A stretch of DNA of 64,000 bases from an uncultured Pseudomonadales bacterium (GCA_964521215.1 CAZFRD010000001.1:59210-123209), one strand, 5' to 3'. Counted from the stretch's first letter, positions 27,418 to 46,724 are shown. Translations and numbers: made by a program. Notes: generated by a model from the letters alone, not told the origin.

Positions 27418-27434
27418 AGCTGAGTAATTGTATA

Positions 27435-27698: not shown

Positions 27699-28737
27699 AG
27701 GTTTTTAGCACCGCACTGTCGGTGGCAATGTAAACCCATTGATTTTGATAGCGCCAGGTAGGTGGGTGATAGAGCACACCATCAGTATTGTTTTTGGTTG
27801 CTATCGGTAAAGAATGGGTAAGCAATTTGGGTCGGATTTGATTTCGTGCTAACTTCAAACCAAGACTAAGTAGTTCGGTGAGCGACCATTGCTTTGAGTA
27901 ATTAAGGTTATACCAAGCAACTAATTTTCCGAGTATTTCTGGGTTAGTTAAGGTTGTTTTTGATTGGAGTTTGTTCAGCAGAGCAGTGATAACTTCTTGT
28001 TGACGTTGAGTGCGGGAATCATCGGTGCCAGTTTCTCCAGCTGCCTGTCGAGACCGAACATATTCCAGAACTCGCTCGCCGCTCATAGTTTGGAGACCTT
28101 TTTCAAAACTAATAGTTTCTTGTAAAACCGACAAATCCGACGTTTCACTTGGGTTTACTCCAGCCCGGGGGTAATGCTCATCAGTAAAAGCTTGCGCAAC
28201 CGTGATTTCTATGCCACCCATAATATTGACGAGTTCAGCTAATTGTTCGAGTGAAACGGGGATCACTTTATCAATAGTGATGCCAGACAGCTCTTCAACA
28301 ACAGTTTTCACAAACTCAGTTGGTTCAGTTGGTGAATTTTGATGACCATAATAATAGAGGGCATTGATTTTGGTTTTGTATTGATCTATCCACAGATCTC
28401 TTGGTAATGAAAGTGAATGAATGACTCCCGTATTTGGATCCAGAGTGATGAGCATAATCGTATCAGTTAAAACAGTTTGGTTTCTTGCTTCTACTTCATC
28501 CAAACCCAAAATCAGTATAGAAATAACACCCTTAGTATCTTGTAGTCGATTTTGCCAAGCTTTACTCGCTATCTCAATTAGTTGTGAAGTGCTCAGACCA
28601 CTAGATTTTTGGAAAATGGAGTATTTGTGCCAAGAGATAAAGGAGAAAAATATGCCAGTCAGCAAAAACAACACTACTAGAAAACCCAGAGTGGCCAACT
28701 GAGCTTTGAGCATGAGTTTGATGAAATCTTTATTCAC
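27667..28737 (-). CDS. LCP (LytR-CpsA-Psr) family cell-wall glycopolymer ligase
   Basis: N-terminal transmembrane helix, then ILILGLDEVEARNQTVLTDTIMLITLDPNTGVIHSLSLPRDLWI. Confidence 0.75.
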   Translation of the reverse strand: MNKDFIKLMLKAQLATLGFLVVLFLLTGIFFSFISWHKYSIFQKSSGLSTSQLIEIASKAWQNRLQDTKGVISILILGLDEVEARNQTVLTDTIMLITLDPNTGVIHSLSLPRDLWIDQYKTKINALYYYGHQNSPTEPTEFVKTVVEELSGITIDKVIPVSLEQLAELVNIMGGIEITVAQAFTDEHYPRAGVNPSETSDLSVLQETISFEKGLQTMSGERVLEYVRSRQAAGETGTDDSRTQRQQEVITALLNKLQSKTTLTNPEILGKLVAWYNLNYSKQWSLTELLSLGLKLARNQIRPKLLTHSLPIATKNNTDGVLYHPPTWRYQNQWVYIATDSAVLKTYVQSLLFASE

Positions 28738-30458: not shown

Positions 30459-30464
30459 TCGTTT

Positions 30465-31931: not shown

Positions 31932-31933
31932 CT

Positions 31934-32839
31934 ATGATCAAACTAACTGCCATCGTTAATACAAAAAATTCGGCTAAATATTTAGAGTCGTGTTTACAGT
32001 CACTCTCATTTGCTAACGAAATTATTGTGGTTGATATGGAGAGTAAAGATGAAACAAAAGCCATAGCCCACAAGTATCACGCCACAATTATTAGCATACC
32101 CCAGGCTACCTACGTTGAGTTAGTCCGTAACGACTCAATTAAATTGGCGACCAATCCTTGGATTCTGTTGGTTGATCCAGATGAAGTAATTTCTCCAAAG
32201 TTGCAGGAAAAGATCTTGGCCACCATTTCTAATCAAGACTCATCGATTGTGGCTTATCAGATTGCTCGCAAAAACCTCATTTTTGCCAAATGGATTCAAC
32301 ATAGCGGTTGGTGGCCTGATTATCAAATTCGCCTCTTCAAAAAAGGTAAAGTTAAATGGAGCGGTGTCATCCATCAAAAACCTGATCTGGATGGAGCAGT
32401 GGCGACTCTACTCCCCGAAACTGAGTATGCGATTGATCATGACAATTATCAATCGATTGATGAATATTTTGAAAAAATGCTACGTTACACTCTGGCCGAG
32501 GTTGACCAACCAGCGGCAAAAAAACCTTCTAAATTTACCTCCAATGATTTGCTGAAAGCTTTCTTTGATGATTTTTTCCGTCGTTATTATCAAAATAATG
32601 GTGATCAAGATGGTCTGCATGGTACCACCCTGGCGTTGCTTCAAAGTTTTTACCAGGTGACTACCAAACTCCGAGCTTGGGAAAAGCAACAGTTTCCTCA
32701 GTCAAACAGCTCATTGAGTACTGCCGTTGTGGATCAAATCATGAGTGATTGGAAATATTGGCAAGCTTCTAGCAAAGCGCAGAGGGCAACTGGTTGGCGC
32801 AGATTTTATTGGCTACTGAGAAAATATTTACGAGTTTAG
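31934..32839 (+). CDS. family 2 glycosyltransferase
   Basis: LTAIVNTKNSAKYLESCLQSL...EIIVVDMESKDET...LLVDPDE. Confidence 0.75.
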   Translation: MIKLTAIVNTKNSAKYLESCLQSLSFANEIIVVDMESKDETKAIAHKYHATIISIPQATYVELVRNDSIKLATNPWILLVDPDEVISPKLQEKILATISNQDSSIVAYQIARKNLIFAKWIQHSGWWPDYQIRLFKKGKVKWSGVIHQKPDLDGAVATLLPETEYAIDHDNYQSIDEYFEKMLRYTLAEVDQPAAKKPSKFTSNDLLKAFFDDFFRRYYQNNGDQDGLHGTTLALLQSFYQVTTKLRAWEKQQFPQSNSSLSTAVVDQIMSDWKYWQASSKAQRATGWRRFYWLLRKYLRV

Positions 32840-32854
32840 GCTATAATAGAAGCT

Positions 32855-33772
32855 GTGAAGCACGTTTCTGTAATTTTAGTTCACTACAATAATATTCGAA
32901 CTACCAATACCTGCATCAGATCTTTGGTATCGTTGGTACACCCTGGCTATGCTTGTCAGTTTCTGATCGTCGACAATGGTTCGGTGCGGAACTATGTGTT
33001 GCCCAAGCAACTCCGATCTTCAAAAAAATTCAAGGTAATTAGGTCCGATGCCAATCTAGGCTTTACTGGAGGAAATAACTTGGGTATTCATTTTGCAGTA
33101 GAAAATAACAATTCTCAGTATATCTTTTTACTCAATAACGATACAACTATCGAAAGAAATGCTCTACGGAATTTACTCAAAGTCTTAGAGGATCAAGCCG
33201 AGGTCGGAATTGTTAGTCCCAAAATTTATTTTACGTCCGGCAAAGAATTTCACAAACAAAGTTATAAACCATCCGAACGGGGACAGGTGCTTTGGTTTGC
33301 AGGTGGCACTATTGACTGGCAACATTTAATTGCTTTTCACCGAGGGGTAGATGAGGTAGATCTGGGTCAGTTTGATCATACAACTCAGACCGATTTTGCC
33401 ACTGGGTGTGCCATGTTGATACGCAGAGAAGTGTTAGAAAAAGTCGGTTTTTTGGATAAGCGCTATTTTATGTATTTTGAAGATGTAGATTTGAGTTTAC
33501 GTGCAATAAAGGCGGGGTACAAAATTGCTTTTTGTCCCCAGGCTAAGGTCTGGCATGACAACGCCGGCTCCTCGGGTGGTTCCGGTTCCGCGCTTCATGT
33601 TTACTACCAGGAAAGAAATCGTTATTTACTTGCTTTTACCCAAGGGAACTACTTGGTGATACCAGTTATCTTGCGCTTGCAACTGCAAGCGCTCTTATCA
33701 GGCAATCGCTTTCGTCGAAAAGCGGTGCTAGACTTTTATATGCGCTCATTTGGCAAACAGGCACTCCTATGA
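32855..33772 (+). CDS. family 2 glycosyltransferase
   Basis: VSVILVHYNN...LIVDNGS...GFTGGNNLGI...FLLNNDTTIE...FFMYFEDVDLSLR. Confidence 0.75.
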   Translation: MKHVSVILVHYNNIRTTNTCIRSLVSLVHPGYACQFLIVDNGSVRNYVLPKQLRSSKKFKVIRSDANLGFTGGNNLGIHFAVENNNSQYIFLLNNDTTIERNALRNLLKVLEDQAEVGIVSPKIYFTSGKEFHKQSYKPSERGQVLWFAGGTIDWQHLIAFHRGVDEVDLGQFDHTTQTDFATGCAMLIRREVLEKVGFLDKRYFMYFEDVDLSLRAIKAGYKIAFCPQAKVWHDNAGSSGGSGSALHVYYQERNRYLLAFTQGNYLVIPVILRLQLQALLSGNRFRRKAVLDFYMRSFGKQALL

Positions 33773-34587
33773 AAAAGCTTTCGGTGACAGCAATTATTTT
33801 GGCTAAAAACGAAGAAGCAATGCTCCCAGGATGTTTAAAAACTCTCAGTTGGTGTAAGGAGATTATCTTAATTGATGATGGATCGACGGATAAAACAGCG
33901 GAAATAGCCGAAAGTGCTGGCGTCAAAGTCATTGCTTTTAAGCACCAATCGTTTGCCAGACTCAGAGAAGAGGGGGCCAAGTACGCCAGCCAAGACTGGT
34001 TATTTTATATTGACTCCGACGAGCGAGTGACGCCTCAGTTAGCTCAAGAAATTCAGGTTAATCTGGAAAATAATAAAAACCTAGCTTTTCAAATTAACCG
34101 AGAAAATATTTTCTTTGGCAAATTATTTCAGCATGGGGGTTGGGAAACCGATCCCGTCACTCGCCTGATCAAGGCCAACGCTCTCCGTGGCTGGAGGGGA
34201 GCGATTCATGAGTCTCCGCTGATCACTGGTAAAACATCAACGCTTGAGTCACCTTTGTTGCATTTTTCCCATCGATCAGTGGCGGAGGGTCTAGTCAAAT
34301 CTGCCGCTTGGACACCAGTGGAAGCTCAACTAATTGCTAAAGCCAGTAATATGTCAGTCACCTTTATGATGATAGTAAGAAAAGGCATGGGGGAGTTTTG
34401 GCGCCGAGCAGTCAAGCATAAGGGCTACCAAGATGGCGAGGCAGGATTGATGGAGAGTTTGATCCAAGCCATCAATCGGATGTTAGTTTACTTGCAAGTC
34501 TGGGAACTCCAACAAACTCCACCCATCAAAGATTTATATGCGGTAAAAGAAAGAGAAGTAGAAATACTGTGGGAACAGGTAAAATAA
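33769..34587 (+). CDS. family 2 glycosyltransferase
   Basis: VTAIILAKNEE...EIILIDDGSTDKTAEIA...FYIDSDERVT. Confidence 0.75.
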   Translation: MKKLSVTAIILAKNEEAMLPGCLKTLSWCKEIILIDDGSTDKTAEIAESAGVKVIAFKHQSFARLREEGAKYASQDWLFYIDSDERVTPQLAQEIQVNLENNKNLAFQINRENIFFGKLFQHGGWETDPVTRLIKANALRGWRGAIHESPLITGKTSTLESPLLHFSHRSVAEGLVKSAAWTPVEAQLIAKASNMSVTFMMIVRKGMGEFWRRAVKHKGYQDGEAGLMESLIQAINRMLVYLQVWELQQTPPIKDLYAVKEREVEILWEQVK

Positions 34588-34593
34588 ACTATT

Positions 34594-35706
34594 GTGAAAG
34601 CCGTCTTTGTCTCTCCCTATTTGAAACATGTGCATACCGGCGGTGGTGAAAAACATCTGTTTGATGTGGCACTCGCCTTACCCAGGCATATTCAGCTGTA
34701 CTTCGCACTGCCCACCGAAGCAGATGTGACAGATGCCGAATTTCTTGATTATGTGGCAAGATGTAGGAACGATTACCAAGCATTTTTGGGTAAATCTTTA
34801 AAAAGAATTGAGTTTATCAGGTCGCCACTGTTTACTCAGGCTCCCTGGTATAAGAAACTACTTTGGACTCGAGAATTTGATTATCTTTACTATGTGACTG
34901 ACGGTAGTCTGTTTTTTAGTTTGGCTAGAAATAATTTACTTCATATTCAAACGCCATTGCGCAATAATCATCCTAATTTTGTGCAATCAATCAAGATAAA
35001 ACAGTGGCGCTCAGTCAACACTAATTCGGAATTTACTAAGCAAGTGGTTGAAAATGATTGGGGTATCAAGGTCAACCAGGTTCTTTATCCAGAAATTGAT
35101 GCCACATTATTAGCCACTAGAACGAAAAAAACTAATCTCATACTGTCTGTCGGTCGTTTTTTTCCTCAACTACATAGTAAAAGACAAGATATTCTGGTTG
35201 AAGCGTTTGCCCGGTTGTTAAAAGAGCAATCAAGTTTAATGAAAAACTGGCAACTAGTTTTTGTTGGCTCGGTAGAAAACAAGCTTTTTTATGACCAAAT
35301 TGTCCAGCAGGCGAAAGGCTTGGCCATTAGCTTTCAAACTAATCTTGACCACCGGGGCATCACTGATCTTTATGCGCAAGCCCGCATATTTTGGCATGCC
35401 ACTGGTTTTGGCATAGACCAGGAGAAAAACCCAGAAAAGGTTGAACATTTTGGCATTGCCACCGTCGAAGCGATGGCGGCTGGAGCGATACCGTTAGTCA
35501 TTACCAGTGGCGGGCAATCGGAAATTATTCCTTCAGCATTGAAGCCATATTGTTGGCAGAGCGTGACGGAGTTAGTGACCAATACTGCTCAACTTTTACG
35601 CGATCCCAGTAAAGAAAGTCAATTACGTAAAATTGTGCGAGCTCGAGCGGCAGATTTTTCTCATGAACAATTAGAAAGAAATGTTCGGAAATTTTTTAAT
35701 GTCTGA
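34594..35706 (+). CDS. GT4-type glycosyltransferase (Glycos_transf_1)
   Basis: The C-terminal domain has EHFGIATVEAMAAGAIPLVITSGGQSEII. Confidence 0.7.
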   Translation: MKAVFVSPYLKHVHTGGGEKHLFDVALALPRHIQLYFALPTEADVTDAEFLDYVARCRNDYQAFLGKSLKRIEFIRSPLFTQAPWYKKLLWTREFDYLYYVTDGSLFFSLARNNLLHIQTPLRNNHPNFVQSIKIKQWRSVNTNSEFTKQVVENDWGIKVNQVLYPEIDATLLATRTKKTNLILSVGRFFPQLHSKRQDILVEAFARLLKEQSSLMKNWQLVFVGSVENKLFYDQIVQQAKGLAISFQTNLDHRGITDLYAQARIFWHATGFGIDQEKNPEKVEHFGIATVEAMAAGAIPLVITSGGQSEIIPSALKPYCWQSVTELVTNTAQLLRDPSKESQLRKIVRARAADFSHEQLERNVRKFFNV

Positions 35707-36601
35707 TGCCCTAACTGTGACTACCATCATCCCCACTTATAACGGCAGAAAACTGCTAGAAAAAAATCTGCCTTCCGTCCTACGTTCATTAAGAAATGGG
35801 GATGAGTTAATTATCATCGATGATGCCAGCCAAGACGAAAGTTGCAATTGGTTAAAATATGGTTTTCACCTCACTCAGCAACGCAAACCAAATCTTTCAG
35901 ATAAGCATGGTGAGTTTGAGTTGTTTCAGGGATTTGTAGTATTGAAACATAAGAGAATTGCAATTACTTTAATTGAAAATGCTCGCAACCTCAGGTTTGC
36001 CGCTAGTGTTAACCGAGCGGTTGGGTTAGCAACAAAACCCTTGCTCTTTTTGCTCAACTCGGATGCATCGGTTCAACCAGATACAGTTGATTGTTTGGTG
36101 AAGGCATATCAGAATAACGCTCAGCCCATTTTTGCTATTGGTTGCTTGGAATATGAAGGCGAAATCAACCAAGACCTAAAAAGTTTACCTACGGCAGGAA
36201 AAAACAAACTTTGGTTTGAACGTGGCTATTTTATGCACAGCAAAGCTAGCACCGATGCCTCGGGCGAAACGGTCTGGGCGAGTGGGGGGAGCGCGCTGTT
36301 CAACCGCGAAAGATGGCTAGCATTGGGGGGATTTGACGAGCGTTTCGCCCCGGCTTATTGGGAAGATATCGATCTTTCCTATCGTGCTAAAAAGAAAGGT
36401 TGGCAAGTCTTGTTTGAAAGATCGGCCGTTGTTTTTCATCAGCATGAATCAACTAACCAGCGTGTATTTTCAGAATCGGAAGTTCAACAACTCAGTTGGA
36501 AACACGCCGCCTACTTTGTGCAGAAACATGGCTCTTTTTGGCAAAAGCTAGCTTTTGTCTTATGGCAACCATATTGGTTATGGAAAAGATCTCGCCAATG
36601 A
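35699..36601 (+). CDS. family 2 glycosyltransferase
   Basis: VTTIIPTYNGRKLLEKNLPSV...LIIIDDASQDES...FLLNSDA...YWEDIDLSYRAKKKGW. Its stop overlaps the next gene's start within the bases ATGA. Confidence 0.7.
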   Translation: MSDALTVTTIIPTYNGRKLLEKNLPSVLRSLRNGDELIIIDDASQDESCNWLKYGFHLTQQRKPNLSDKHGEFELFQGFVVLKHKRIAITLIENARNLRFAASVNRAVGLATKPLLFLLNSDASVQPDTVDCLVKAYQNNAQPIFAIGCLEYEGEINQDLKSLPTAGKNKLWFERGYFMHSKASTDASGETVWASGGSALFNRERWLALGGFDERFAPAYWEDIDLSYRAKKKGWQVLFERSAVVFHQHESTNQRVFSESEVQQLSWKHAAYFVQKHGSFWQKLAFVLWQPYWLWKRSRQ

Positions 36602-38193
36602 AAAACAAGCAATCATTAATGTTATTGTTCTTAGTCTTGTTAGCTGGAATAATTAGATTTTGGCAACTTGGTACCATACCTTCGGGACCCAACTGGGATG
36701 AAGCTGCGATTGGCTACAATGGCTGGTCGGTTTGGCAGACCAGAAGAGACGAGTGGTTGGAAAAATTGCCAACTTCTTTTCGCTCTTTTGGAGACTACAA
36801 AGCTCCGTTAGCGATATATCTTAATGGTTTGTTTACCTCACTTTTTGGATTAGAAACATGGGTAATTAGATTGCCTTTTGCCTTATCGGGAGTAATTGGT
36901 GTGGTGGGATTTTATTTTCTACTCAAGTCAATTTTTAACTTTTCACCCAAAGGGAGTACTTATCTTTCTTCTGCCTGGTTAGCGTTACTGGGTACTGGAA
37001 TGCTCACGATCTCTCCGTGGCATATTTTATTTACTCGAGCTGGTTTTGAAAGCGGCCTAGCCCTAAGCGAAGTCGTCTGGGCCACAACTTTGTTTTTATC
37101 TTCATTACAGCTGAAAAAGAAAAACTGGCAATACTTTTGCTGGCAAATTACTGCTGGAATACTATTTGCCAGCACTTTTTATACTTACCACAGCGCCAAA
37201 GTGATGGTACCACTTTTTCTTTCACTTTTATTTTTATTGCTCAGCCGCAAAAAGTTGATTGCAATCAAACAGGTTGTGATTTTTTCAGCCGGCGTGCTCA
37301 TCTTAATCATTCCATTTTTAATCGACTCATTATTGGGTGAGGGTCTCACTCGGGCTAATGTCACTATCTTCGCTCATACCCAATCATTGGCTTATCTTCC
37401 ACTATTATTGATTAAAAATTTGCTGGCTCACCTCAGTCTCTCGTTTCTCTTATTGGGTAAAGCTGACTCAATTCGTCACTCAATTGGTACGATGGGAGTA
37501 TTGTTTCCCACCACTGCATTTTTATTCGCCTTAGGATTGGTGGCAAGATACAAAAAAAACTATATATTTATTTGGTCTTTCGCCACAATTTGGGTTGTAG
37601 CGGGATTGGCACCCGCCATCATTGGGATTGAAGTCCCTCATCCCAATCGTGCCTTACTCGCCCTGCCAGGTTTCTTACTTTTTGCCTTACTGGGAATTGA
37701 CTTGATAACTGAAAACATCTCAAAACATACACGTCAACCCGCCAAGTACCTCAAAATATTTATTGCTAGTTTGGTCATTATTAACATCATTCAAGCTAGT
37801 TATTTTTTATCTCAATATTTTGGCGTTTATGCCAAGCAATCTAGCCCATATTTTCAAGATGGTTACCGGGAAATGTTTACTGAAGTTTGGTCTTACTACG
37901 ATGGTAAAGATGGTCGGCATTCTGTTGATCAAATTGTTATCACGAGCGAATATGGTCAACCGTATATTTACGCTCTTTTAACCAGGAAAATTTCCACTTT
38001 TCAGTACCACAATGGCGCATTGATCAACTTTATTTTCCCCGATGTAGTCCAGTTAAGCGATCTTGATCGGCCCAATGCTTTGATTGTAGCTGGTGAAAAA
38101 AGTGATCTAGTTAATCGCACGCAAGCTTTTAAAGTGATATATACCAAAGACGGTAAACCAAGATTTTGGTTGTTTGATACCGACCAACTTTGA
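36598..38193 (+). CDS. GT-C glycosyltransferase, GT39/PMT-ArnT-like (paralog 1 of 5)
   Basis: IIRFWQLGTIPSGPNWDEAAIGYNGWSV...FGDYKAPLAIYLNGLFTSLFGLETWVIRLPFALSGV, followed by about 11 transmembrane helices. Confidence 0.75.
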   Translation: MKNKQSLMLLFLVLLAGIIRFWQLGTIPSGPNWDEAAIGYNGWSVWQTRRDEWLEKLPTSFRSFGDYKAPLAIYLNGLFTSLFGLETWVIRLPFALSGVIGVVGFYFLLKSIFNFSPKGSTYLSSAWLALLGTGMLTISPWHILFTRAGFESGLALSEVVWATTLFLSSLQLKKKNWQYFCWQITAGILFASTFYTYHSAKVMVPLFLSLLFLLLSRKKLIAIKQVVIFSAGVLILIIPFLIDSLLGEGLTRANVTIFAHTQSLAYLPLLLIKNLLAHLSLSFLLLGKADSIRHSIGTMGVLFPTTAFLFALGLVARYKKNYIFIWSFATIWVVAGLAPAIIGIEVPHPNRALLALPGFLLFALLGIDLITENISKHTRQPAKYLKIFIASLVIINIIQASYFLSQYFGVYAKQSSPYFQDGYREMFTEVWSYYDGKDGRHSVDQIVITSEYGQPYIYALLTRKISTFQYHNGALINFIFPDVVQLSDLDRPNALIVAGEKSDLVNRTQAFKVIYTKDGKPRFWLFDTDQL

Positions 38194-38233
38194 TGTTTCA
38201 AAGTCGGAGCCGTTCCAAAACGATCTTTTTTTT
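38180..38233 (+). terminator. hairpin spanning the stop codon plus a ccgttccaaaacg hairpin and T8 tract
   Basis: ccgac-caa-ctttga-tgtt-tcaaag-tcgg, then gagccgttccaaaacgatc followed by tttttttt. Confidence 0.5.
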
Positions 38234-38308
38234 GATTCTCGATGAGAATATTTTACCCAAAAATCACAACTGTATTTTTATTAACATTTGAGAAACACTC
38301 TACTAATA

Positions 38309-38380
38309 AAAAATATGGTTTAGTGTAAAGCACGTCTCCAGACGGGGCCATGCTTTAGTGTAAACCCCCATCAAATAAAA
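38309..38380. repeat. intergenic imperfect-palindromic element, copy 2
   Basis: aaaatatggTTTAGTGTAAAGCACgtctccagacggggccATGCTttagtgtaaacccccATCAAATAAAA. The central 16 nt are the reverse complement of the copy-1 centre, while the outer flanks are in direct orientation. Confidence 0.6.
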
Positions 38381-38513
38381 AGCACGTAGCTTGGGGTAGC
38401 AATTAGCGATACTTCATAAGTCAGTTCAATAGTTTGCAGAACCATTAGTCTTTTTCTAGGATTTCTTTCTAATCAAACAAAGAAAATAACCGTTGGGAAT
38501 GGTATCCAAAAAG

Positions 38514-40058
38514 TTATTCGATCAAAAAATCACTACCACTTTCACCTTGATAAATATACCCAGTCGTATCTAGAGTAGCATCAGAGTTGCCGATCGTGCC
38601 AATAATGACTTGAAAGGGCACTCGACCAAAACGATGACTTTGTTGTTGGTATTGCGAATCGAGCTTAAAAAGAGCTACCTTGGAGTAAGCTAATGAATGC
38701 CGACAGGCAGGGAAGATATCCCAAGCGCAGATCTCTCGATTGTTACAGATATCAACCACCGTGGTGGCTGTTTCATCAATGGTTAAAGTAGAATATTGTT
38801 TAACGCCAAAAAACACATTATTGATAAAATCATCATCGTGGAAAATAAAGCGAATATTTTGCCCAGGTGATTTGGCTTGAATAAACTCAATTGTACTTTG
38901 TAACTCTGCCAAATCGTTATAGCTATGCCATTGACTAATATAGATTCCCGAAGAAAAAAACATCAAGCCAAATATGCTGAGAATGACAAACTTGGAGCGA
39001 GTGGCTGACATTAAACTCGCCAGAAAGACAAAAGGTAAAAAGAAAAGGGTGCTGAAAAAATAATCCAACTTATCTCCCCTGAAAACTCTGAGCATTATAA
39101 AAATACTGAAAAAATAGAACAAGATTATTATAAAAGAAAGATTCTTAGTTTTCCGATAATGTGCAATCAGGGAAAAGATTCCACCAAAGTAAATAGAGAG
39201 ACCAAAAATTGAATAAAGAGTCTCTTTGCCGAATAATACTCGGTCAAAAAATGCCGGAAAGTAGGTGAAAACATATGTTGGCTTAGAGATTCGTTCAAAA
39301 TACCTCGAATGTTCTTGAGTAAAGTAGTTCAATATCGCTCGGGAGTTGGAAAAATTAGAAGTAATTTCCGCATAGAAATATGGCAGTAAGATAAGAGACA
39401 TTATGATTATGCCACTCGCCCAAAATAGTAGTAGTCGCTGAGAAAAATTGTTTTTGATAGAGTAAATGAAACAAAAAGCAAGCAGGGGTAGTAAGACAGC
39501 AGCTTGATAATGAAACTGAAAAGCGACAATAAATGAAAAACAAGCTATTGGAATAAACCACAGCTGATGGTATTTAACTACTCGGATAGATGAATAGACA
39601 AGAAGCAAAGAGAAAAAAGGAATCATGTTGGGATTCCAGGCCGTCGTACCATACTGCAGGGGAATTGGTGCCACGATATATAACAAACTAGATAATGTTG
39701 CTAACTTGATACCAAATAATTCTTTAATAATCAGAAATAATAAGACCGGACTTAAGGCTTCAACTATGGTCACAACCCACTTCATGACCAGAGGATCATT
39801 GTTGGTGAATAGCGAAAAGATCACATGAATTTGGTAATAAAGTGGAGGCAAATAGAAATTGCCTATGCCCACTTTTGGCCCATAGTCAACTATGATCTGA
39901 TCAAATTTTATTCGTTGACTCATAAGCCATGAGTCTCGAGCAACATCTTGTCCAAACGAAATATGGGTAGAGGAGAAAATCAGGCGGGTGCTCAGACTGA
40001 GAATCAAGATGAGAAGGACTACTAGTGTATTACTGGTCTTGAGCTTGCTATGATACAT
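38514..40058 (-). CDS. polytopic membrane protein, GT-C-like candidate (unnamed family with D-x-x-R-D...WNP motifs)
   Basis: FGQDVARDSWLM...TAWNPNMIPFFSLLL with about 12 transmembrane helices. Related to 51171..52883 and 52904..54319. It is the only minus-strand gene inside the GT39 array. Confidence 0.45.
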   Translation of the reverse strand: MYHSKLKTSNTLVVLLILILSLSTRLIFSSTHISFGQDVARDSWLMSQRIKFDQIIVDYGPKVGIGNFYLPPLYYQIHVIFSLFTNNDPLVMKWVVTIVEALSPVLLFLIIKELFGIKLATLSSLLYIVAPIPLQYGTTAWNPNMIPFFSLLLVYSSIRVVKYHQLWFIPIACFSFIVAFQFHYQAAVLLPLLAFCFIYSIKNNFSQRLLLFWASGIIIMSLILLPYFYAEITSNFSNSRAILNYFTQEHSRYFERISKPTYVFTYFPAFFDRVLFGKETLYSIFGLSIYFGGIFSLIAHYRKTKNLSFIIILFYFFSIFIMLRVFRGDKLDYFFSTLFFLPFVFLASLMSATRSKFVILSIFGLMFFSSGIYISQWHSYNDLAELQSTIEFIQAKSPGQNIRFIFHDDDFINNVFFGVKQYSTLTIDETATTVVDICNNREICAWDIFPACRHSLAYSKVALFKLDSQYQQQSHRFGRVPFQVIIGTIGNSDATLDTTGYIYQGESGSDFLIE

Positions 40059-41768
40059 AATATGCGTAATTTCTCGATTGCTACAATCATTATCTTAGCA
40101 GTCGTTTTTCGTTTCTTCCAGTTGGGAAACCTACCTCCCTCACCTTATTGGGAAGAGGTGGCTCTCGGTTATGATGCCTATTCTATTCTGCAAACTGGTC
40201 GGGATCACCATGGTCATTGGTTTCCTATTGTGGCTTTTGAATCTTTTGGTGACTGGAAGCCCGGCTTTTATATTTACTCGGTTATTCCTAGCATTTTTAT
40301 ATTTGGCTTAAATACTTTTGCCGTGCGTTTACCATCGGCGATAGCTGGTATCGCCATTGTGATTGGTTCTGGCGTTTTGGCCAACTTGTTGTTTTTGACA
40401 AAAAAAACTGCCGACCAACCAGTTGAACAAACTGATCGCTGGTTGCCACTACTAGTCATGTTGGTAGCCGCAGTCGAACCCTGGGGGATTATCTTTTCTC
40501 GTGGAGCCTGGGAGGCTAACTTGGCCAGTGCGTTAATACTCTGGGCAATTATCTGTATCTTCCAACAAGCAAAATTCAATCAAAAGTCAAAGATGGCTGG
40601 CAATTTATTTTTTTCGGCGATACTGACAGCTTTGGCTATGTACACCTATCATGCAGCTCGGATTGCCGCCCCGCTAATGGTCGGGGCGGCATTTATTTTT
40701 CAAGAACTAGAAAATAAAACCATTTGGATCAATGCCAAACAACGAGCGAAACGCTGGCGACAACTAGTTGTGCCCATCATCGTCTTTATCTTGATGTTGT
40801 CACCACTCATAACCAATATTTTTACCAACCAAGTAACCAATCGTTTTGTCACTACCTCGATCTTTTCCAATCTAGAAATTATTATCCAAAGCAACCAACT
40901 GAAAGAAATTGCGGGCAACAACTTATTAGCTCGCTTGTTTTATCATCGATATTTATTATTTGCCAAAGAAATCTCCATTAATTTTGTCAAAAACTTTGAT
41001 CTGGGATATCTTTTCCTCCATGGTGATACCAATCCTCGTCACTCAATTCAGTATTTTGGCCAGTTCTTTCCACTTAGCTTGATACTAATTATTATTGGTA
41101 TGACGGTATTATTTTTTAAACATCGATCCAAAACTTTACTATTTTTGCTTTGGTTTATTGTCGGTTTACTGCCCTCTACTCTAGTAATCGGATCACCGCA
41201 TGCAGTCAGAACGCTGATGATTTTACCCTTTTGGTTCATCATTATTGGCTTAGGTTTGCATCGATGTATTGATTGGTTGTCTCGTGTTAATCAACCAAAA
41301 CAAACCATTGTAACGTTAGTTTTTTCTTTTGTTTTGATAGCGCAGATCAGCATCTTTTGGATCTATTATAGTCAGATCTATCCAGCTAAATACGAACACG
41401 AATGGCAGTTTGGTTATCAACAACTGGTATCAGAGGTCAATCAGTTGGCCACGGCGTTTCCCGATGATCAAATTTATATTACCAGAGAGCAGGGCAGGCC
41501 CGCCATGTACTATTGGTTTTTCTCTCAAACAGATCCACGCTTAGTGCAAGCATATGAAAAGACCGCTTACAAGGATCAAGGCGAATTTCTTCAATTTGGA
41601 AGACTGCATTTTATTGACAAAGCAGACCAAGTATCAACCAGCTTTGGCATCTTAGCCGCATCTCCCTCTTTTACTGCCGATGTGGGACTGGCTACCGATG
41701 GTGATAACGTAACTATAGTTGATTCATTCGGCAAGCCTATTTGGGTCGTCCAACATTATGAAAAATAA
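40050..41768 (+). CDS. GT-C glycosyltransferase, GT39/PMT-ArnT-like (paralog 2)
   Basis: VFRFFQLGNLPPSPYWEEVALGYDAYSILQTGRDHHGHWFPIVAFESFGDWKPGFYIY...AVRLPSAIAGI. Confidence 0.75.
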   Translation: MIHNMRNFSIATIIILAVVFRFFQLGNLPPSPYWEEVALGYDAYSILQTGRDHHGHWFPIVAFESFGDWKPGFYIYSVIPSIFIFGLNTFAVRLPSAIAGIAIVIGSGVLANLLFLTKKTADQPVEQTDRWLPLLVMLVAAVEPWGIIFSRGAWEANLASALILWAIICIFQQAKFNQKSKMAGNLFFSAILTALAMYTYHAARIAAPLMVGAAFIFQELENKTIWINAKQRAKRWRQLVVPIIVFILMLSPLITNIFTNQVTNRFVTTSIFSNLEIIIQSNQLKEIAGNNLLARLFYHRYLLFAKEISINFVKNFDLGYLFLHGDTNPRHSIQYFGQFFPLSLILIIIGMTVLFFKHRSKTLLFLLWFIVGLLPSTLVIGSPHAVRTLMILPFWFIIIGLGLHRCIDWLSRVNQPKQTIVTLVFSFVLIAQISIFWIYYSQIYPAKYEHEWQFGYQQLVSEVNQLATAFPDDQIYITREQGRPAMYYWFFSQTDPRLVQAYEKTAYKDQGEFLQFGRLHFIDKADQVSTSFGILAASPSFTADVGLATDGDNVTIVDSFGKPIWVVQHYEK

Positions 41769-43446
41769 AATACTTTTAGCAATCATTATTATAATTGCTG
41801 CTGGACTGCGCCTCTTTGATTTAGGATCTATTCCCATTGCCCTGAATCGTGATGAAGCCTCGCTGGGATACACCGCCTATTCCTTGTTAAAAACTGGAGC
41901 AGACGAATATGGTAAAAAATGGCCGTTAAATTTGGAGTCTTTTGGCGACTGGAAATTACCCGTATATACTTGGTTCACTATTCCCAGCGTTGCCCTGTTT
42001 GATCTTTCAGCTTGGTCAGTTAGATTACCTTCGGCTTTGGCAGGCATTGCGGCAGTGGGGCTAATTTACCATTTATCATTATTGCTAATCTCTCAGAGTC
42101 GCTACCGCTACCAGTTTGCATTACTGACGGCACTACTGCTGGCAATTTCACCCTGGCATCTCCACTTTTCTCGTCTGGCCTATGAGGCCAATCTCGGTTT
42201 AACCCTGCTGTTAGCAGGCATGCTCTTGCTGTTTAAATATTTTCGCCAGCCAAAAGGCGTGCTAATTATTTTGAGCGCCATGTTCTTTGGACTGACCATG
42301 ATTTGTTATCATGCCTTACAGTTAGTGACGCCACTAATCTTAGTGACAATCATTTTTCTATTTGCAAACAAATTAATTAAAAAACAAACAGCTCGCTTAA
42401 TCGTTTTGCTTGTCGCCAGCGCCTTTGTACTACTACCAATGATCTTTTTATCAACGGTAGCTACCCAACACAGCAACAATGTAAAATTATCAGGCATTTC
42501 TATTTTTGACAAAGAATCATATTTCCGCAGGTCACAGGCTAAACGCCAATATTTTAATAATGATCATTGGTTAATAGCAAAATACTACACCAATATTCCG
42601 CTCGAATTTATCCGTCAATTATTGGTGAATAGTACGACTGCTATCAATCCCGACTTTTTATTTATCAATGGCGCTGGTCATGGGTCGCACGATATCAGTG
42701 GTATCGGCAAACTTTATAGTGCGACCATACCTTTTTTGGTCTTGGGTTTAATGACAATTTTTAGCCGTAACTCTTTATTCAATCGTCAGGTAAGACTTTT
42801 TGTTTTTGGCTGGTTAATAATTGGCTTGCTTCCCGCACTAATTACTTGGCAATCAGCCCATGCCACTCGTTCATACGTTATTGTCATTCCCCTGATATTG
42901 ATCACAGCCCAAGGCATTTTTTGGCTATTTCAGCAACTCAAGAAGCAAAACCCCAAACTGCTCTGGGCGAGTCTGATATTTACATTCGTCGTTTTATTTT
43001 TTCAACTCGGTAGCATGATGATTACTTATTTTATTGTGGCACCACAAAGAGATAGCGAGAACTGGTCGTGGTATGCCCAAGACATGGTGAAGTTTTTGTC
43101 CTTGGCTCGAACGCAAGTCGATCACGTTTATGTTCAGGGTTACAGCTGGTCTCCATATATCTACTACTTATTTTATGCCAAAGTCGATCCACAGTACGCC
43201 CAAACTCATTTAAATCATTTGTCCGCTGATGTTGAGGGCTTTCGACACGTCAATCAATTCGACTCAATCGACTTTGGCGATGTGCCTTTTCAACATTTGA
43301 TTGAAGCGGGTAGTTCGTATGCGGTGTTTGCTCCCAAGAGTCAACTCCCCACTAATTTCAGTCAGGATCCGACTCAATTTGATTATTTTGAAGTATTAAC
43401 CAATCCAAATAGCAGGGAAACCTATGTGGCAGTCTTTAAAAAGTAA
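41758..43446 (+). CDS. GT-C glycosyltransferase, GT39/PMT-ArnT-like (paralog 3)
   Basis: GLRLFDLGSIPIALNRDEASLGYTAYSLLKTGADEYGKKWPLNLESFGDWKLPVYTW...SVRLPSALAGI. Confidence 0.75.
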   Translation: MKNKILLAIIIIIAAGLRLFDLGSIPIALNRDEASLGYTAYSLLKTGADEYGKKWPLNLESFGDWKLPVYTWFTIPSVALFDLSAWSVRLPSALAGIAAVGLIYHLSLLLISQSRYRYQFALLTALLLAISPWHLHFSRLAYEANLGLTLLLAGMLLLFKYFRQPKGVLIILSAMFFGLTMICYHALQLVTPLILVTIIFLFANKLIKKQTARLIVLLVASAFVLLPMIFLSTVATQHSNNVKLSGISIFDKESYFRRSQAKRQYFNNDHWLIAKYYTNIPLEFIRQLLVNSTTAINPDFLFINGAGHGSHDISGIGKLYSATIPFLVLGLMTIFSRNSLFNRQVRLFVFGWLIIGLLPALITWQSAHATRSYVIVIPLILITAQGIFWLFQQLKKQNPKLLWASLIFTFVVLFFQLGSMMITYFIVAPQRDSENWSWYAQDMVKFLSLARTQVDHVYVQGYSWSPYIYYLFYAKVDPQYAQTHLNHLSADVEGFRHVNQFDSIDFGDVPFQHLIEAGSSYAVFAPKSQLPTNFSQDPTQFDYFEVLTNPNSRETYVAVFKK

Positions 43447-45148
43447 AATACTTACCAAATCATTCATATTTTACTGCGCTATTATCTTTGGCATTGGCTT
43501 GCGCCTGATCCAATTTGGTCAAATACCGGTGGGCACCTATTGGGACGAGACGGCAATTTTGATTGATGCGACTACCGTGGCCGAAACTGGACATGATATG
43601 CATCGCAACTCTTGGTTGCAGGCAATCTTTCCCTCATATGGAGATTATAAATTGCCAGTTTATATTTGGTTGAGTAGTCTGGTAGTCAAAGTCATCGGCA
43701 GTCATGAAATTGCCGTCAGACTGCCTAGTTTGGTGGCAGGTTTGGGTACGATTGTTTTAGCGGCAGCCTTAGCGGGTGAACTAGCAAAATACTGGCCCAG
43801 AAAACAACGCCTGGTCTTCCAGTTGGCTGCCGCTAGTGTCGTATCGCTCTCATACTGGGCGATTCTATTTTCTAGAGTTGGCTTTGAGGGACACCTGGCT
43901 CAACTTTGGTTGGGTATTTCATTTTTGCTACTGCTCAAATCAAAGCAAAAAGCTATTTATTGGCCACTAGCTGGTTTATTTGGAGCTCTCGCTTTATTCA
44001 CTTATTACGCTACACGATTTATTTGGCCGGCGCTGTGGTTGCTGATGCTGTTACCAATCCTTTATCAAATGATCAGCAAATCAAATCAGCGCCGGTCGCT
44101 TGTGACCTCTCAGTTGCTGCCGGCAGTTTTATCATTCGCTATTTTTAGTCTGAGTTTATTGGTGATGATTCGCTCGCCGTTATATCCGGCGAGCGAACTT
44201 TTTCGACTCAGTTCTGACTCCATTCTCAATCAAGCGCCATTTGTGGCCCAAGCCAATTTGGCCCAACAAATAGAAGGGCCCACACTGATTGGCAGAGTAG
44301 TACTCCATCGACATATTTTTCAAGCTCAAGCCCTACTCAATCATCTGTCGGCCCATTTTTCTTTAGATTATTTATTTTTCCATGGCGACGCCAACCTGCG
44401 CCACGGCACGAGCCTGCATGGATTATTTCCCGTTTTTTTTCTACCTTTTCTTCTGCTTGGAATAGTCAGCCTTTTTAGACATCACAAAAAAGTCTTCATT
44501 TTCCTCATTTTTTGGTGGGTAATTGGCTTAATTCCTGCTTCGGTACCATATGAAGTGCCTCACTCATTGCGTTCTTTGAATAGTTTATTGCCATTATCCC
44601 TGATTTTTGCCTATGGTTGCTCGGTACTATTTTTGTCTGTCAACCGCACTGCTAAAATCGTACTTAAAATACTAATAGTTGGCGTCGGTTTTGAGTTAGT
44701 TGCATTTAGTTACTTTTTATTTACCACCTACCCCAAGCTGTCAGCTTCCGAATGGCAGGCGGGATACAAACAATTAGCTCAACATGCAATTCAGCACCAA
44801 GCTGACGTCAATAATCTTTGGATCAACTCGGGAGATGGCAGGTTTTACTTATGGTTGTTGGCTTACGGCAATCTGAGCACCCAAGAGATTCAGAAGCTAA
44901 ACTGGCAAAATTACCAACTCGCTACCATCGACAATATCAACCTGCAGGATTTCGTCTATAGTTATGAAGATCTACCTAATACTCCATTTGCCTTAGCGGG
45001 TCGCAGAAAAGAAATCCTAAGTAATTTAGCGATACTCAAACTGACACCGCAAGTGGTAGTACCAATTTATGACGCCAACCAACAGGAACAATTTATTGTG
45101 ACTTACTTCAACCTAAATCAGGAAAGAGCCATTGATGTTACAAAATAA
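43424..45148 (+). CDS. GT-C glycosyltransferase, GT39/PMT-ArnT-like (paralog 4)
   Basis: GLRLIQFGQIPVGTYWDETAILIDA...FPSYGDYKLPVYIWL...AVRLPSLVAGL. Confidence 0.7.
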   Translation: MWQSLKSKILTKSFIFYCAIIFGIGLRLIQFGQIPVGTYWDETAILIDATTVAETGHDMHRNSWLQAIFPSYGDYKLPVYIWLSSLVVKVIGSHEIAVRLPSLVAGLGTIVLAAALAGELAKYWPRKQRLVFQLAAASVVSLSYWAILFSRVGFEGHLAQLWLGISFLLLLKSKQKAIYWPLAGLFGALALFTYYATRFIWPALWLLMLLPILYQMISKSNQRRSLVTSQLLPAVLSFAIFSLSLLVMIRSPLYPASELFRLSSDSILNQAPFVAQANLAQQIEGPTLIGRVVLHRHIFQAQALLNHLSAHFSLDYLFFHGDANLRHGTSLHGLFPVFFLPFLLLGIVSLFRHHKKVFIFLIFWWVIGLIPASVPYEVPHSLRSLNSLLPLSLIFAYGCSVLFLSVNRTAKIVLKILIVGVGFELVAFSYFLFTTYPKLSASEWQAGYKQLAQHAIQHQADVNNLWINSGDGRFYLWLLAYGNLSTQEIQKLNWQNYQLATIDNINLQDFVYSYEDLPNTPFALAGRRKEILSNLAILKLTPQVVVPIYDANQQEQFIVTYFNLNQERAIDVTK

Positions 45149-46724
45149 ACCACTTTTACTTAGCTTGTTGGTCATATTTTTGCTGGGTTTATTTTTTCGG
45201 TTCTTTCAACTCTCCACTACCGCACCCATACTCAATCGTGATGAGGCGGCTTTGGGTTATAACGCCATGTTGCTCAAAGAGACAGGCAGAGACGAGTGGG
45301 GCATCAGTTGGCCGATTACGCCCAGATCTTTCGGTGACAGCAAGCTGATTGGCTACCCACTACTGTTAGTCGGCCTGTTTCAGTTTTTGCCCCAAGCTGA
45401 CTGGGTTGTTCGCTTGCCAGCCATCATTGCGGGCTCATTACTATCCATTCTAGTATATTTTTTTGCTCGACAATTAGGTGTAACCAAAAGTTTCGCTCTT
45501 TTAGCCTCACTGAGTATTGCCGTCAATCCCGTGTTCATCCATTTTTCCCGGTTTGCTTACGAAGCCATGGTAGCTTTGACGTATTTTGTCGCTGCCACTA
45601 CGTTAATCCTTTGCCCCACCAAGCAGTTCAAGCGCAGGCTAGTTTTTGACTTGGTGGCAGCGTTACTCTTTTTTGCCAGTTTGTTGACCTACAACACTCC
45701 ATTGCTATTATTGCCACTTTTGATTTTACTTATTCCAATTCAACGAGGAATGTTTCCCGTTAAGATCTGGCTGAGTTCAGTTGCGATTTTGAGTCTCACC
45801 TGGGTGATTGCACTAGCATTGCTGTTTCCCATGCTGGCGCAAAAAAGTGGCATTTCAATTTTTTCGGATCAAACATACATCCAAGCGTATCCACAGTTTC
45901 GTGCTTCATTTAACACCTTGCTCCGGCCCCTGTTGGGGAATCAATATATTTACTACGGCAAATCAATCCTGACACAAATGTTGAAAAGTTTTTCTGCTCA
46001 TTTTATCGTTACTGCCGGTGGCACCCATCCTTGGCACACGCTCAGAAATCATGGTCATCTCAGCTGGATCATCTATCTTGGTTTTCTCATCGGCATTATC
46101 TCTTATGGAACTAAACTCATTAGACGTGATCGTAGATTAAGCAAAAATAATCATTTTCTAATGCTTTTGTTGATTGGCTCATTAATTCCCGCCAGTATTA
46201 CGGTAGATGCACCCCATGCAACTCGGAGTTTATTATTTTTTGTTTTAGTGACTGTTATCGCCGTTTACGCTTATCAACAATTATCAGCTCATATTCACTT
46301 GTCACTACTGGGAAGATTTACAAAGCGACTTATCATATTGGGAATGCTTGCCACAACTCTCATTGGCGGTCTCTCTTTCTTCACCCAGTATCTAGAAAAC
46401 TATCCTGCCCAAGCTGCTCGGGTTTACCAAGCTGGTTTCGATCAAATAATTACTACTTTAAACAAACAATATCCCAATTCCAATATTGCAGTGGTAGATC
46501 CCGGTGGATTTCAGTATATATTGTTGGCTTGGTACGCCAAATATTCTCCTGCAGAATTTTTTCAAACAATAGTCAAACAACAACCCAACACAATTGGTTT
46601 ACAATATGGTGAAAGTCTCGGTCGCTACCATTTTATTATGCAAGCTTCAGATCAGTCACCGGTGGAGGATATCTTAGTATTTTGGAATGAGTCGACTAAT
46701 CAATGGCAGTACTTACGATCATGA
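45132..46724 (+). CDS. GT-C glycosyltransferase, GT39/PMT-ArnT-like (paralog 5)
   Basis: FFRFFQLSTTAPILNRDEAALGYNAMLLKETGRDEWGISWPITPRSFGDSKLIGY...VVRLPAIIAGS. Confidence 0.7.
   Translation: MMLQNKPLLLSLLVIFLLGLFFRFFQLSTTAPILNRDEAALGYNAMLLKETGRDEWGISWPITPRSFGDSKLIGYPLLLVGLFQFLPQADWVVRLPAIIAGSLLSILVYFFARQLGVTKSFALLASLSIAVNPVFIHFSRFAYEAMVALTYFVAATTLILCPTKQFKRRLVFDLVAALLFFASLLTYNTPLLLLPLLILLIPIQRGMFPVKIWLSSVAILSLTWVIALALLFPMLAQKSGISIFSDQTYIQAYPQFRASFNTLLRPLLGNQYIYYGKSILTQMLKSFSAHFIVTAGGTHPWHTLRNHGHLSWIIYLGFLIGIISYGTKLIRRDRRLSKNNHFLMLLLIGSLIPASITVDAPHATRSLLFFVLVTVIAVYAYQQLSAHIHLSLLGRFTKRLIILGMLATTLIGGLSFFTQYLENYPAQAARVYQAGFDQIITTLNKQYPNSNIAVVDPGGFQYILLAWYAKYSPAEFFQTIVKQQPNTIGLQYGESLGRYHFIMQASDQSPVEDILVFWNESTNQWQYLRS

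Follow-up and report, generated by a model that had tools for sequence, protein, structure and literature searches.

A lineage-wide set of GT-C-type glycosyltransferase paralogs in a patescibacterial glycan cluster

Introduction

The Patescibacteria, most of them uncultured, are a numerous group of episymbionts whose genomes are very small (about 1 Mb), and next to nothing is known of their envelope chemistry. The window analysed here, a stretch of 64,000 nucleotides, contains five related genes for membrane proteins (paralogs A to E), which a sequence-only reading had taken for five tandem GT39/PMT- or ArnT-like enzymes of a single operon, serving protein O-glycosylation or the decoration of lipids or glycopolymers. 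To which family do these proteins belong, is each of them an enzyme in its own right, and what do they build?

Organisation of the array

The five plus-strand ORFs all encode multi-pass membrane proteins of about the expected 530–575 aa (Table 1), and the deposited gene calls on the 126,895-bp NCBI contig agree exactly with them, these starts included. Several of the genes do overlap, by 11 nt at B/C, 23 nt at C/D and 14–17 nt at D/E, and the array is joined to its neighbours by a 4-nt overlap of GT2d with A and one of 4 or 22 nt between E and GT2e. However, the five are not consecutive: between the stop codon of A (38193) and the start codon of B (40062) lie a spacer and a minus-strand gene, X. 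Since X interrupts the array and only 3 nt separate its start codon from the divergent one of B, a single operon from A to E is not evident here. To call the array five tandem genes of a single operon is thus inaccurate, and with an antisense gene in between, co-transcription of A with B–E is uncertain in this genome. A promoter and terminator consensus scan of positions 35500–48000 did not outperform shuffled sequence (36 sites against 30.4±4.1 and 17 against 11.6±3.5), and neither tRNAs nor Rfam families were found in the window.

That X might be a spurious antisense ORF was ruled out by 44 conserved homologs, a PMT_2 match, a confident GT-C model and an AT skew as expected for a membrane gene on the minus strand. 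X owes its place between A and B to a lineage-specific insertion. The spacer that separates it from A holds a hairpin element with two TTTAGTGTAAA copies (38317–38366); two relatives (L002 and L006) have no such spacer, and there A and X meet end to end.

Table 1. Positions of the array genes and of the adjoining glycan genes in the window
Feature	Position	Strand	Description
rmlD, rmlC, rmlB and LCP (LytR-CpsA-Psr) glycopolymer ligase	24839..28737	-	Pfam; divergent from the cluster
Conserved upstream block	28761..36601	+	Pfam and NCBIfam; same order in related loci
Y1	28761–30458	+	YfhO/PTPS_related GT-C type
MOP/Wzx-type flippase	30465–31931	+	
GT2a	31934–32839	+	
GT2b	32855–33772	+	
GT2c	33769–34587	+	
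GT4a	34594–35706	+	
GT2d	35681–36601	+	
Paralog A	36598..38193	+	GT-C glycosyltransferase, 531 aa, orthogroup A; PMT_2 36.1 bits
Spacer	38194..38513		320 nt, non-coding, between convergent ends of A and X
X	38514..40058	-	Sixth GT-C glycosyltransferase, 514 aa, different subfamily, between A and B
Paralog B	40062..41768	+	GT-C glycosyltransferase, 568 aa, orthogroup B (most conserved)
Paralog C	41758..43446	+	GT-C glycosyltransferase, 562 aa, orthogroup C (presence and position variable); PMT_2 34.7 bits
Paralog D	43424..45148	+	GT-C glycosyltransferase, 574 aa, orthogroup D; PMT_2 23.5 bits, below cut-off
Paralog E	45135..46724	+	GT-C glycosyltransferase, 529 aa, orthogroup E; PMT 18.5 bits, weak

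Family membership and fold

All pairs of A–E align by blastp over nearly their full length, with E-values of 3e-13 to 2e-50 (1e-28 to 3e-42 for D against A, B and C; 3e-13 to 4e-31 for paralog E against A–D). Their identity of 24–30 % lies within the 20–35 % given earlier. In Pfam, the PMT_2 model (PF13231, gathering cut-off 26.1 bits) is matched above its cut-off by A, C and X (32.4 bits for X) and below it by D, while B and E have no PMT_2 match and B has no Pfam match above cut-off at all. As B, D and E are homologous to A and C along their full length, the whole family lies at the edge of this model. The PMT model (PF02366, cut-off 22.7 bits) is matched by paralog E only, below the cut-off, and none of the five matches PMT_4TMC (PF16192) or MIR. 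A–E therefore lack the features by which CAZy GT39 is recognised, namely PF02366 and PF16192 above their cut-offs and, in eukaryotes, a MIR domain in the large lumenal loop. Similarly, the NCBIfam ArnT models gave no match at E ≤0.01, and A–E show neither the specific model match or clear similarity nor the arn-type context that mark GT83/ArnT. Sequence searches of the PDB with B alone, with a profile of the five paralogs and with a B-orthogroup profile returned nothing significant; a 58-sequence profile spanning all five orthogroups reaches ArnT over residues 71–237, at a marginal E-value of 9.6e-4. The assignment to GT39/PMT or ArnT that the sequence-only reading had made is consequently not established. 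Homologs of these proteins already carry the name “GT family 39/ArnT-like” from annotation pipelines.

The predicted structures of B and X yield high-scoring matches to GT-C enzymes only, with ArnT as the best Foldseek match, and B is structurally about equally distant from ALG12, ArnT, AglB/STT3 and Pmt (8–14 % identity). The model of B is polytopic, with the long helix-bearing first extracytoplasmic loop (EL1) common to ArnT, STT3, PMT and ALG enzymes, and has no beta-rich domain inserted between the TM helices. That A–E are transporters or other polytopic membrane proteins rather than glycosyltransferases is refuted by these matches and retains next to no probability; an unrelated transporter family was the outcome that the earlier assignment had itself named as fatal to it.

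The N-terminal motif noticed earlier was found in all five paralogs as R-[FL]-x-x-[LF]-[GS], [WR]-[DE]-E, T-x-x-D, S-[FY]-G-D-x-K and [IV]-R-L-P, with WEE instead of WDE in B. When conservation was counted over 282 family members, the second residue of the [DE]-E dyad was Glu in 282/282 and the first Asp or Glu in just as many; the Lys of SFGDxK is conserved in 99 %, and the Glu of FSRxxxE and the Arg of PHxxR in 100 %. The dyad, which all five window paralogs have, follows TM1 by about 14 residues and opens the first EL1 helix, and the PHxxR Arg of the family marks the N-terminal end of a late TM helix. GT-C/PMT enzymes have in common a catalytically essential acidic dyad (DD or DE) in EL1 and an Arg before TM10, which OSTs and TMTCs also carry; in ArnT, K85 binds the lipid phosphate and D158 contacts the acceptor (PMC7801869). 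In the 58-sequence profile the family Lys and Glu align with ArnT chain indices 88 and 161, which, given a consistent +3 offset, are K85 and D158. To judge from position rather than alignment, the dyad would be the equivalent of ArnT D55/E56, and the PHxxR Arg, placed by position only, is probably the phosphate-binding Arg before TM10. The acidic residues of loop 1, whose conservation had been proposed as a check, are thus kept in every paralog together with the other catalytic or ligand-binding positions, and by fold, acidic dyad and basic residues A–E belong to the GT-C fold superfamily. Residues conserved in an orthogroup-specific manner amount to only 5 positions under strict criteria, too few to address specificity.

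Orthogroups and gene order in relatives

For comparison, 79 related loci from Woesebacteria, Pacebacteria and Beckwithbacteria were used, and gene presence was counted in 48 full loci. Each of A–E constitutes a separate orthogroup across the related loci: the neighbour-joining clades hold one member per locus (81 loci for B, 59 for A, 50 for E, 49 for D and 15 for C), and the best hit to the cognate paralog scores about twice the second-best. With one orthogroup per paralog across about 50–80 genomes, the duplications are indeed old, as had been supposed. Orthologs of A, D and E are found in 42, 40 and 38 of the 48 full loci, respectively, and C-like best hits in 26, at differing positions; C and X come and go while the other paralogs are retained. 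Several non-redundant GT-C paralogs are therefore conserved across the lineage, and they would act on a single glycan.

Conservation extends to the arrangement of the genes. The order Y1-Wzx-GT2a-GT2b-GT2c-GT4a-GT2d-A-B-(C)-D-E-GT2e-GT4b-Y2-GalE is kept among loci that are only 35–45 % identical in protein, and GT2a to GT2d are each present in 83–94 % of the 48 full loci. Family members on the same strand are tightly packed in the relatives (junctions of ≤30 nt in 101/146, overlapping in 76). Surface-polysaccharide loci are normally hypervariable, so that a glycan cluster of fixed order at this level of identity is unusual. Its near constancy across many ultra-small Patescibacteria suggests a conserved surface glycan and, together with the some 6–10 large GT-C genes that so small a genome (about 1 Mb) devotes to it, an essential, conserved wall polymer. 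A literature search for GT-C enzymes of the CPR/Patescibacteria envelope found nothing relevant, which does not prove the array to be undescribed.

The surrounding glycan cluster

The upstream and downstream genes bring the cluster to seven Leloir glycosyltransferases, five GT2 and two GT4, since E is followed by GT2e, GT4b, a second YfhO-like gene (Y2) and then a GalE-like epimerase. The best matches of GT2a, GT2c and GT2e are GmaR and SunS, and Y1 weakly matches the PgfM1 and PgfM2 models. On the divergent side, rmlD, rmlC and rmlB represent the dTDP-rhamnose pathway and the ligase matches the NCBIfam LCP model with 94 bits; the adjacency TrmD-RmlD-RmlB-LCP-Wzx recurs in five related loci (L004, L032, L035, L049 and L059). 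No polyprenyl-phosphate-sugar synthase of the GtrB, DPMS or ArnC type was identified among GT2a–e or elsewhere in the window, which likewise yielded neither a recognisable Wzy-type polymerase nor an initiating phosphoglycosyltransferase, and the cluster contains no ArnA/B/C/D-type or lipid A pathway neighbours. As to the roles first proposed, the flippase, the GT2 and GT4 enzymes, LCP, rmlBCD and the YfhO-like genes favour a wall or envelope glycopolymer over protein O-mannosylation.

What the array may build

We lean towards the view that A–E are catalytically competent, non-redundant GT-C enzymes of one Patescibacteria-specific family, which carry out polyprenyl-phosphate-sugar-dependent steps in the extracytoplasmic assembly of a conserved envelope glycopolymer. 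The GT-C fold, the conserved catalytic positions, the ancient one-to-one orthogroups, the conserved order and the tight packing were all seen in this analysis; what follows on the donors, the acceptor, the sequence of steps and the end product is inferred. Like other GT-C enzymes, A–E would reside in the cytoplasmic membrane with the active site on its outer face, each drawing on a polyprenyl-phosphate-linked donor to supply a sugar to the growing glycan. Cytoplasmic GT2 and GT4 enzymes would make a lipid-linked oligosaccharide, with dTDP-rhamnose among the donors, and the MOP/Wzx-type flippase would export it (lipid-linked donors being the alternative cargo). Outside the membrane A, B, D and E, with C and X as accessory enzymes and the YfhO-like Y1 and Y2, would contribute one distinct residue or linkage apiece, much as in the ER relay of ALG3/9/12/6/8/10 and with the mycobacterial Emb/Aft enzymes, before the LCP enzyme joins the product to the wall. 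Against this view stand the failure to recognise a donor synthase, a Wzy-type polymerase or an initiating phosphoglycosyltransferase, the interruption of the array by X, and the PMT/PMT_2 names and GmaR/SunS-like GT2s, which also fit protein glycosylation.

These names and GT2s count in favour of a different proposal, in which the paralogs are PMT- or Pgf-like protein O-glycosyltransferases, each serving different secreted or surface proteins, e.g., pilins or the S-layer, via polyprenyl-phosphate sugars. Besides the Pfam PMT_2 and PMT matches and the three GT2s closest to protein or peptide glycosyltransferases, the weak PgfM1/PgfM2 matches of Y1 and the epimerase after Y2 speak for it; the two genes recall the Pgf operon for protein glycosylation in Streptococcus mutans. 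However, PF02366 stays below its cut-off, PMT_4TMC and MIR are absent, B is as far from Pmt as from ALG12, ArnT and AglB, and the LCP ligase, the Wzx-type flippase, rmlBCD and seven Leloir glycosyltransferases are typical of wall glycopolymer synthesis, which leaves protein O-glycosylation a serious but rather unlikely contender. It is less probable still that the paralogs form one or more hetero-oligomeric GT-C complexes, comparable to Pmt1-Pmt2 or EmbA-EmbB, that share a single step and in which some members are mainly structural. The stop/start overlaps do suggest coupled, stoichiometric expression, A, B, D and E are strictly retained together across genomes, and heterodimers are known among GT-C paralogs (6p25, 7bvf). 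Nevertheless, C and X are gained or lost without loss of the others, and none of the five has lost any of the conserved catalytic or ligand-binding residues, which speaks against subunits of a purely structural kind. An ArnT-like modification of membrane lipids or glycolipids, for charge or resistance, has very little to recommend it even though ArnT is the best Foldseek match and the sole significant PDB sequence match, and sources call the homologs “ArnT-like”: identity to ArnT is 11–12 %, neither an NCBIfam ArnT match nor ArnA/ArnC/ArnD-type neighbours are present, and one lipid modification hardly explains five conserved paralogs.

The cluster of about 25 kb, with A, B, D and E as its core and C, X and others as variable parts, might tentatively be regarded as the machinery for an undescribed Microgenomates-wide cell-wall heteropolysaccharide, mostly built outside the membrane by a GT-C relay, with lineage-specific decoration supplied by whatever occupies the variable position from B to D. 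Such a heteropolysaccharide would be the counterpart in ultra-small CPR bacteria of mycobacterial arabinogalactan or of the streptococcal rhamnose polysaccharide, and the decoration could be relevant to host attachment. The enzymes are ordinary in kind, having the GT-C fold, and the gain lies in the pathway context rather than in a new mechanism. The four universal orthogroups (A, B, D and E) offer concrete targets that could be expressed heterologously, studied by structural glycobiology and followed in metatranscriptomes, and they form a marker set to annotate the pathway in metagenomes.

Comparison with known systems

Pmt (GT39; yeast Pmt1/2/4 and actinobacterial Pmt) differs from the array, which has no PMT_4TMC or MIR, matches PMT below its cut-off and lies in a polysaccharide-type context. 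The ALG3/9/12/6/8/10 enzymes show 10 % identity and are eukaryotic ER proteins without a C-terminal soluble domain, whose genes are unclustered. ArnT, the undecaprenyl-phosphate-L-Ara4N:lipid A transferase (GT83; PDB 5ezm/5f15), is of similar size (about 540–570 aa) and likewise has a small C-terminal extracytoplasmic domain; the family SFGDxK Lys, VRLP Arg, FSRxxxE Glu and a Tyr-His align with its K85, ARLA Arg, D158 and K203, so that a Tyr-His pair takes the place of K203. Yet identity is as low as given above and the ArnT models are unmatched, ArnT is one enzyme where there are five paralogs here, and no arn operon or LPS pathway genes lie near the array.

The three-component GtrABC systems and the PPPRS-MATE-GT136 systems of Kelly et al. 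2024 (PMC11127046) modify glycans outside the cytoplasm. They combine one GT-C enzyme with a recognisable donor synthase, whereas 6–10 GT-C-type genes and no identified synthase are found here; shared with them are a GT-C enzyme and a MOP-superfamily flippase in a glycan locus and, as proposed for this cluster, the addition of sugars after export from polyprenyl-phosphate donors. The mycobacterial arabinofuranosyltransferases EmbC-EmbA-EmbB (the embCAB tandem operon) and AftA-D are far larger (about 600–1400 aa) and carry big C-terminal carbohydrate-binding domains, and no equivalent of their UbiA-type DPPR synthase was recognised in this cluster. On the other hand, they too are several GT-C paralogs, partly in tandem and conserved throughout a lineage, which make non-redundant, distinct linkages in a wall polysaccharide on the outer side of the membrane. 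An LCP enzyme links this polysaccharide to peptidoglycan, and A–E may act on a comparable polymer in Patescibacteria.

The five paralogs and their fold

With the starts used in the table, the five plus-strand genes A to E coincide in every case with an exact NCBI gene call on the 126,895-bp contig, and all ten pairs are homologous over approximately their full length (24–30 % identity, E 3e-13 to 2e-50). Their alignment bears out the shared N-terminal motif reported by the sequence-only reading (R-[FL]-x-x-[LF]-[GS], [WR]-[DE]-E, T-x-x-D, S-[FY]-G-D-x-K, [IV]-R-L-P) and contains additional invariant positions (F-[ST]-R-x-x-x-E, Y-H, P-H-x-x-R). The loop-1 pair which that reading took to be catalytic, the [DE]-E dyad, is acidic at both positions in 282 of 282 family members from 80 genomes, the second residue always being Glu. 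Conservation among the same members is 100 % for the FSRxxxE Glu and the PHxxR Arg, 99.6 % for the T-Y-H Tyr, 99 % for the SFGDxK Asp and Lys, and more than 96 % for R17, D48, R89 and R147; the five paralogs of the window retain all these residues, dyad included.

A profile over all five orthogroups matches ArnT (5ezm, E 9.6e-4), the family Lys aligning with chain index 88, the VRLP Arg with that of ARLA, the invariant Glu with index 161 and the Tyr with index 206. Judging by the consistency of three positions at a constant +3 offset, indices 88, 161 and 206 would be ArnT K85, D158 and K203. K85 binds the lipid-carrier phosphate and the D158–K203 pair contacts the acceptor (Eisenhaber et al., PMC7801869). 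GT-C/PMT enzymes have in common a DD/DE dyad in EL1 and an Arg immediately ahead of TM10 (PMC7801869). In the AlphaFold model of B (58 aligned sequences as input; pLDDT 93.5, pTM 0.94) the dyad sits at the start of helix 30–45 and the PHxxR Arg at the N-terminus of helix 381–406, the places corresponding to these two elements. Taken together, the conserved catalytic positions, the ArnT alignment and the placement of dyad and Arg in the model make it likely that A to E are all active glycosyltransferases.

GT-C membership is firmly supported by the predicted structure: a Foldseek search of the PDB with the B model gives ArnT as the top match (E 6e-8), with STT3/AglB, Pmt4, ALG9/12, Emb and AftD next, identities being 8–14 %. 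These matches being GT-C enzymes, an unrelated transporter family is refuted. The narrower assignment to GT39/PMT or GT83/ArnT is not firmly supported, since it is not borne out by the PMT-specific Pfam and ArnT-specific NCBIfam models. A and C exceed the Pfam PMT_2 cut-off and D stays below it, E has a weak PMT match, B has only a weak match to DUF6541, and no NCBIfam model scores above cut-off against any of the five. Several GT-C families lie at roughly the same distance from the B model. B homologs carry annotations such as Patescibacteria group, Pacebacteria, "glycosyltransferase family 39 protein" or "ArnT-like".

Gene X and transcription of the array

The five homologous plus-strand genes had been described as consecutive and as one operon. 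They are present, but a non-coding spacer of 320 nt after the A stop (38193) and the minus-strand gene X separate A from B. X is a real gene: it is an exact NCBI gene call, has 44 homologs and passes Pfam PMT_2 (32.4 bits, cut-off 26.1), and it is only remotely related to A to E. A single A-to-E operon would require antisense transcription through X and is not evident here; a scan for promoter and terminator consensus sequences did no better than shuffled controls. The X start codon (40058-40056) lies 3 nt from the B start (40062) on the opposite strand, which leaves B without intergenic space for a promoter. A and B adjoin or overlap in most genomes compared, so that X is a lineage-specific insertion, and its lower GC content (0.37 vs 0.41–0.43) fits this origin.

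Features of the window (presence refers to 48 related loci with full 10-kb flanks)
Feature	Coordinates	Strand	Remarks	Presence
A	36496/36598-38193	+	ORF listing; start 36598, 531 aa; GT2d/A overlap 4 nt	88 %
X	38514-40058	-	514 aa; between A and B	8 %
B	40050/40062-41768	+	ORF listing; start 40062, 568 aa; B/C overlap 11 nt	100 %
C	41719/41758-43446	+	ORF listing; start 41758, 562 aa; C/D overlap 23 nt	54 %, variable position
D	43424-45148	+	ORF listing; start 43424, 574 aa; D/E overlap 14-17 nt	83 %
E	45132/45135-46724	+	ORF listing; start 45135, 529 aa; E/GT2e overlap 4 or 22 nt	79 %
rmlD, rmlC, rmlB (dTDP-rhamnose pathway), LCP (LytR-CpsA-Psr glycopolymer ligase)	24839-28737	-		
Two gene blocks	28761-38193 and 40062-52883	+		
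GT2a, GT2c, GT2e	31934-32839, 33769-34587, 46721-47527		three small paralogous GT2 genes	
Y1, Y2, GalE-like epimerase	28761-30458, 48551-50242, 50275-51192		Y1, Y2: YfhO/PTPS_related GT-C-type paralogs	
ABC-2 permease	55763-56731			
ABC ATPase	58407-59174			
AbiE-type pairs	57475-58417, 59221-60691		DUF6922 + AbiEii; unknown ORF + AbiEii	
TTTAGTGTAAA/hairpin sites	14025-14035 (-), 24616-24668 (+), 38317-38366 (+)			
bAvd-like ORF	4057-4485	-		
Reverse-transcriptase ORF	4839-5417		short; RVT_1	
Large ORFs	1549-3549 (+), 5878-7866 (-)		unannotated	
706-aa ORF	15303-17423	-	weak PcfJ-like Pfam match	

Orthogroups and gene order

In a species-level genome collection the closest genomes are Candidatus Woesebacteria (69 % identity), and further ones at 35–46 % belong to Pacebacteria, Beckwithbacteria, Microgenomates and unclassified Patescibacteria. 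Searched against 1.84 billion proteins, the five-paralog profile retrieves 5,094 cluster representatives at E <=1e-30. The title "uncultured Pseudomonadales bacterium" stands on many MAG records with this locus of Patescibacteria type (e.g., L006, L007, L018-L024), and Methylococcaceae or Limisphaerales on single ones; these titles are almost certainly placeholders or mis-binned labels.

In the 48 full loci, the ±10 kb around the B ortholog contain 2–6 family members (median 4). The best-match score to one window paralog is about twice the second-best, and neighbour-joining yields separate clades with one member per locus for B (81 loci), D (49), E (50) and C (15); clade A covers 59 loci, ten of them with an extra member. 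The duplications, which the sequence-only reading already called old, are thus older than the split between these lineages, and the retention of each copy argues for non-redundant functions.

The conserved order is striking: Y1-Wzx-GT2a-GT2b-GT2c-GT4a-GT2d-A-B-(C)-D-E-GT2e-GT4b-Y2-GalE, where Wzx is a MOP/Wzx-type flippase. Five related loci (L004, L032, L035, L049, L059) have the alternative arrangement TrmD-RmlD-RmlB-LCP-Wzx-(C)-B-E-D-Y2-Y1-GT2a-c. What occupies the B–D interval varies: C, other GT-C-like ORFs, ORFs of unknown kind and even argS are seen in this slot. This arginyl-tRNA synthetase gene lies between the B and D orthologs, on the same strand, in four loci of Pacebacteria-type genomes (L033, L036, L063, L076; at about 11.6–13.6 kb in each locus), a position which suggests that expression of the array resembles that of a housekeeping operon.

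Other elements in the window

Four copies of the 11-mer TTTAGTGTAAA are present where 0.11 would be expected, each lying between the ends of convergent genes. The site at 24616-24668 forms a strong hairpin (-24.7 kcal/mol, z -5.35), after which comes CUAUCAAAUAAAA, and the A/X spacer holds a related hairpin. Rfam has no match to the element, perhaps a small intergenic unit resembling a terminator or a REP. Elsewhere, a bAvd-like ORF adjoins the reverse-transcriptase ORF in what looks like a diversity-generating retroelement, and the two large ORFs flanking the pair could be its targets. The 706-aa ORF with a PcfJ-like match (23 bits, below cut-off) lies amid housekeeping genes. Two AbiE-type toxin-antitoxin pairs sit as insertions within and behind the glycan-export gene pair of ABC-2 permease and ABC ATPase.

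Interpretation

In the best-supported reading, A to E would catalyse non-redundant GT-C reactions on the extracytoplasmic side during assembly of a conserved envelope glycopolymer. The window yielded no recognisable Wzy polymerase or initiating phosphoglycosyltransferase. Protein O-glycosylation by A to E is a serious rival. The top PDB sequence matches of GT2a, GT2c and GT2e are GmaR (E 3e-7 to 2e-13) and SunS, both of them protein or peptide glycosyltransferases. Y1 and Y2 are 26 % identical (E 6e-21), Y1 weakly matches the PgfM1 and PgfM2 models, and the GalE-like gene follows Y2, an arrangement that recalls the Pgf protein-glycosylation operon of Streptococcus mutans. The three GT2 proteins themselves show no likeness to GtrB, DPMS or ArnC, and no donor synthase of this kind was recognised in the window. 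Modification of lipids by A to E is less likely, as is their assembly into a hetero-oligomeric GT-C complex.

The fold and general chemistry are already known, and pipelines label these proteins GT39/ArnT-like. Our literature search found no description of a distinct GT-C family like A to E, of its four or five ancient orthogroups, or of the conserved cluster that houses them throughout the Microgenomates lineage; all three appear undescribed in the literature searched. In their logic, the GT-C steps proposed for the envelope glycopolymer would parallel those of the Emb/Aft enzymes, of the ALG relay and of systems that act by modification after export (PMC11127046).
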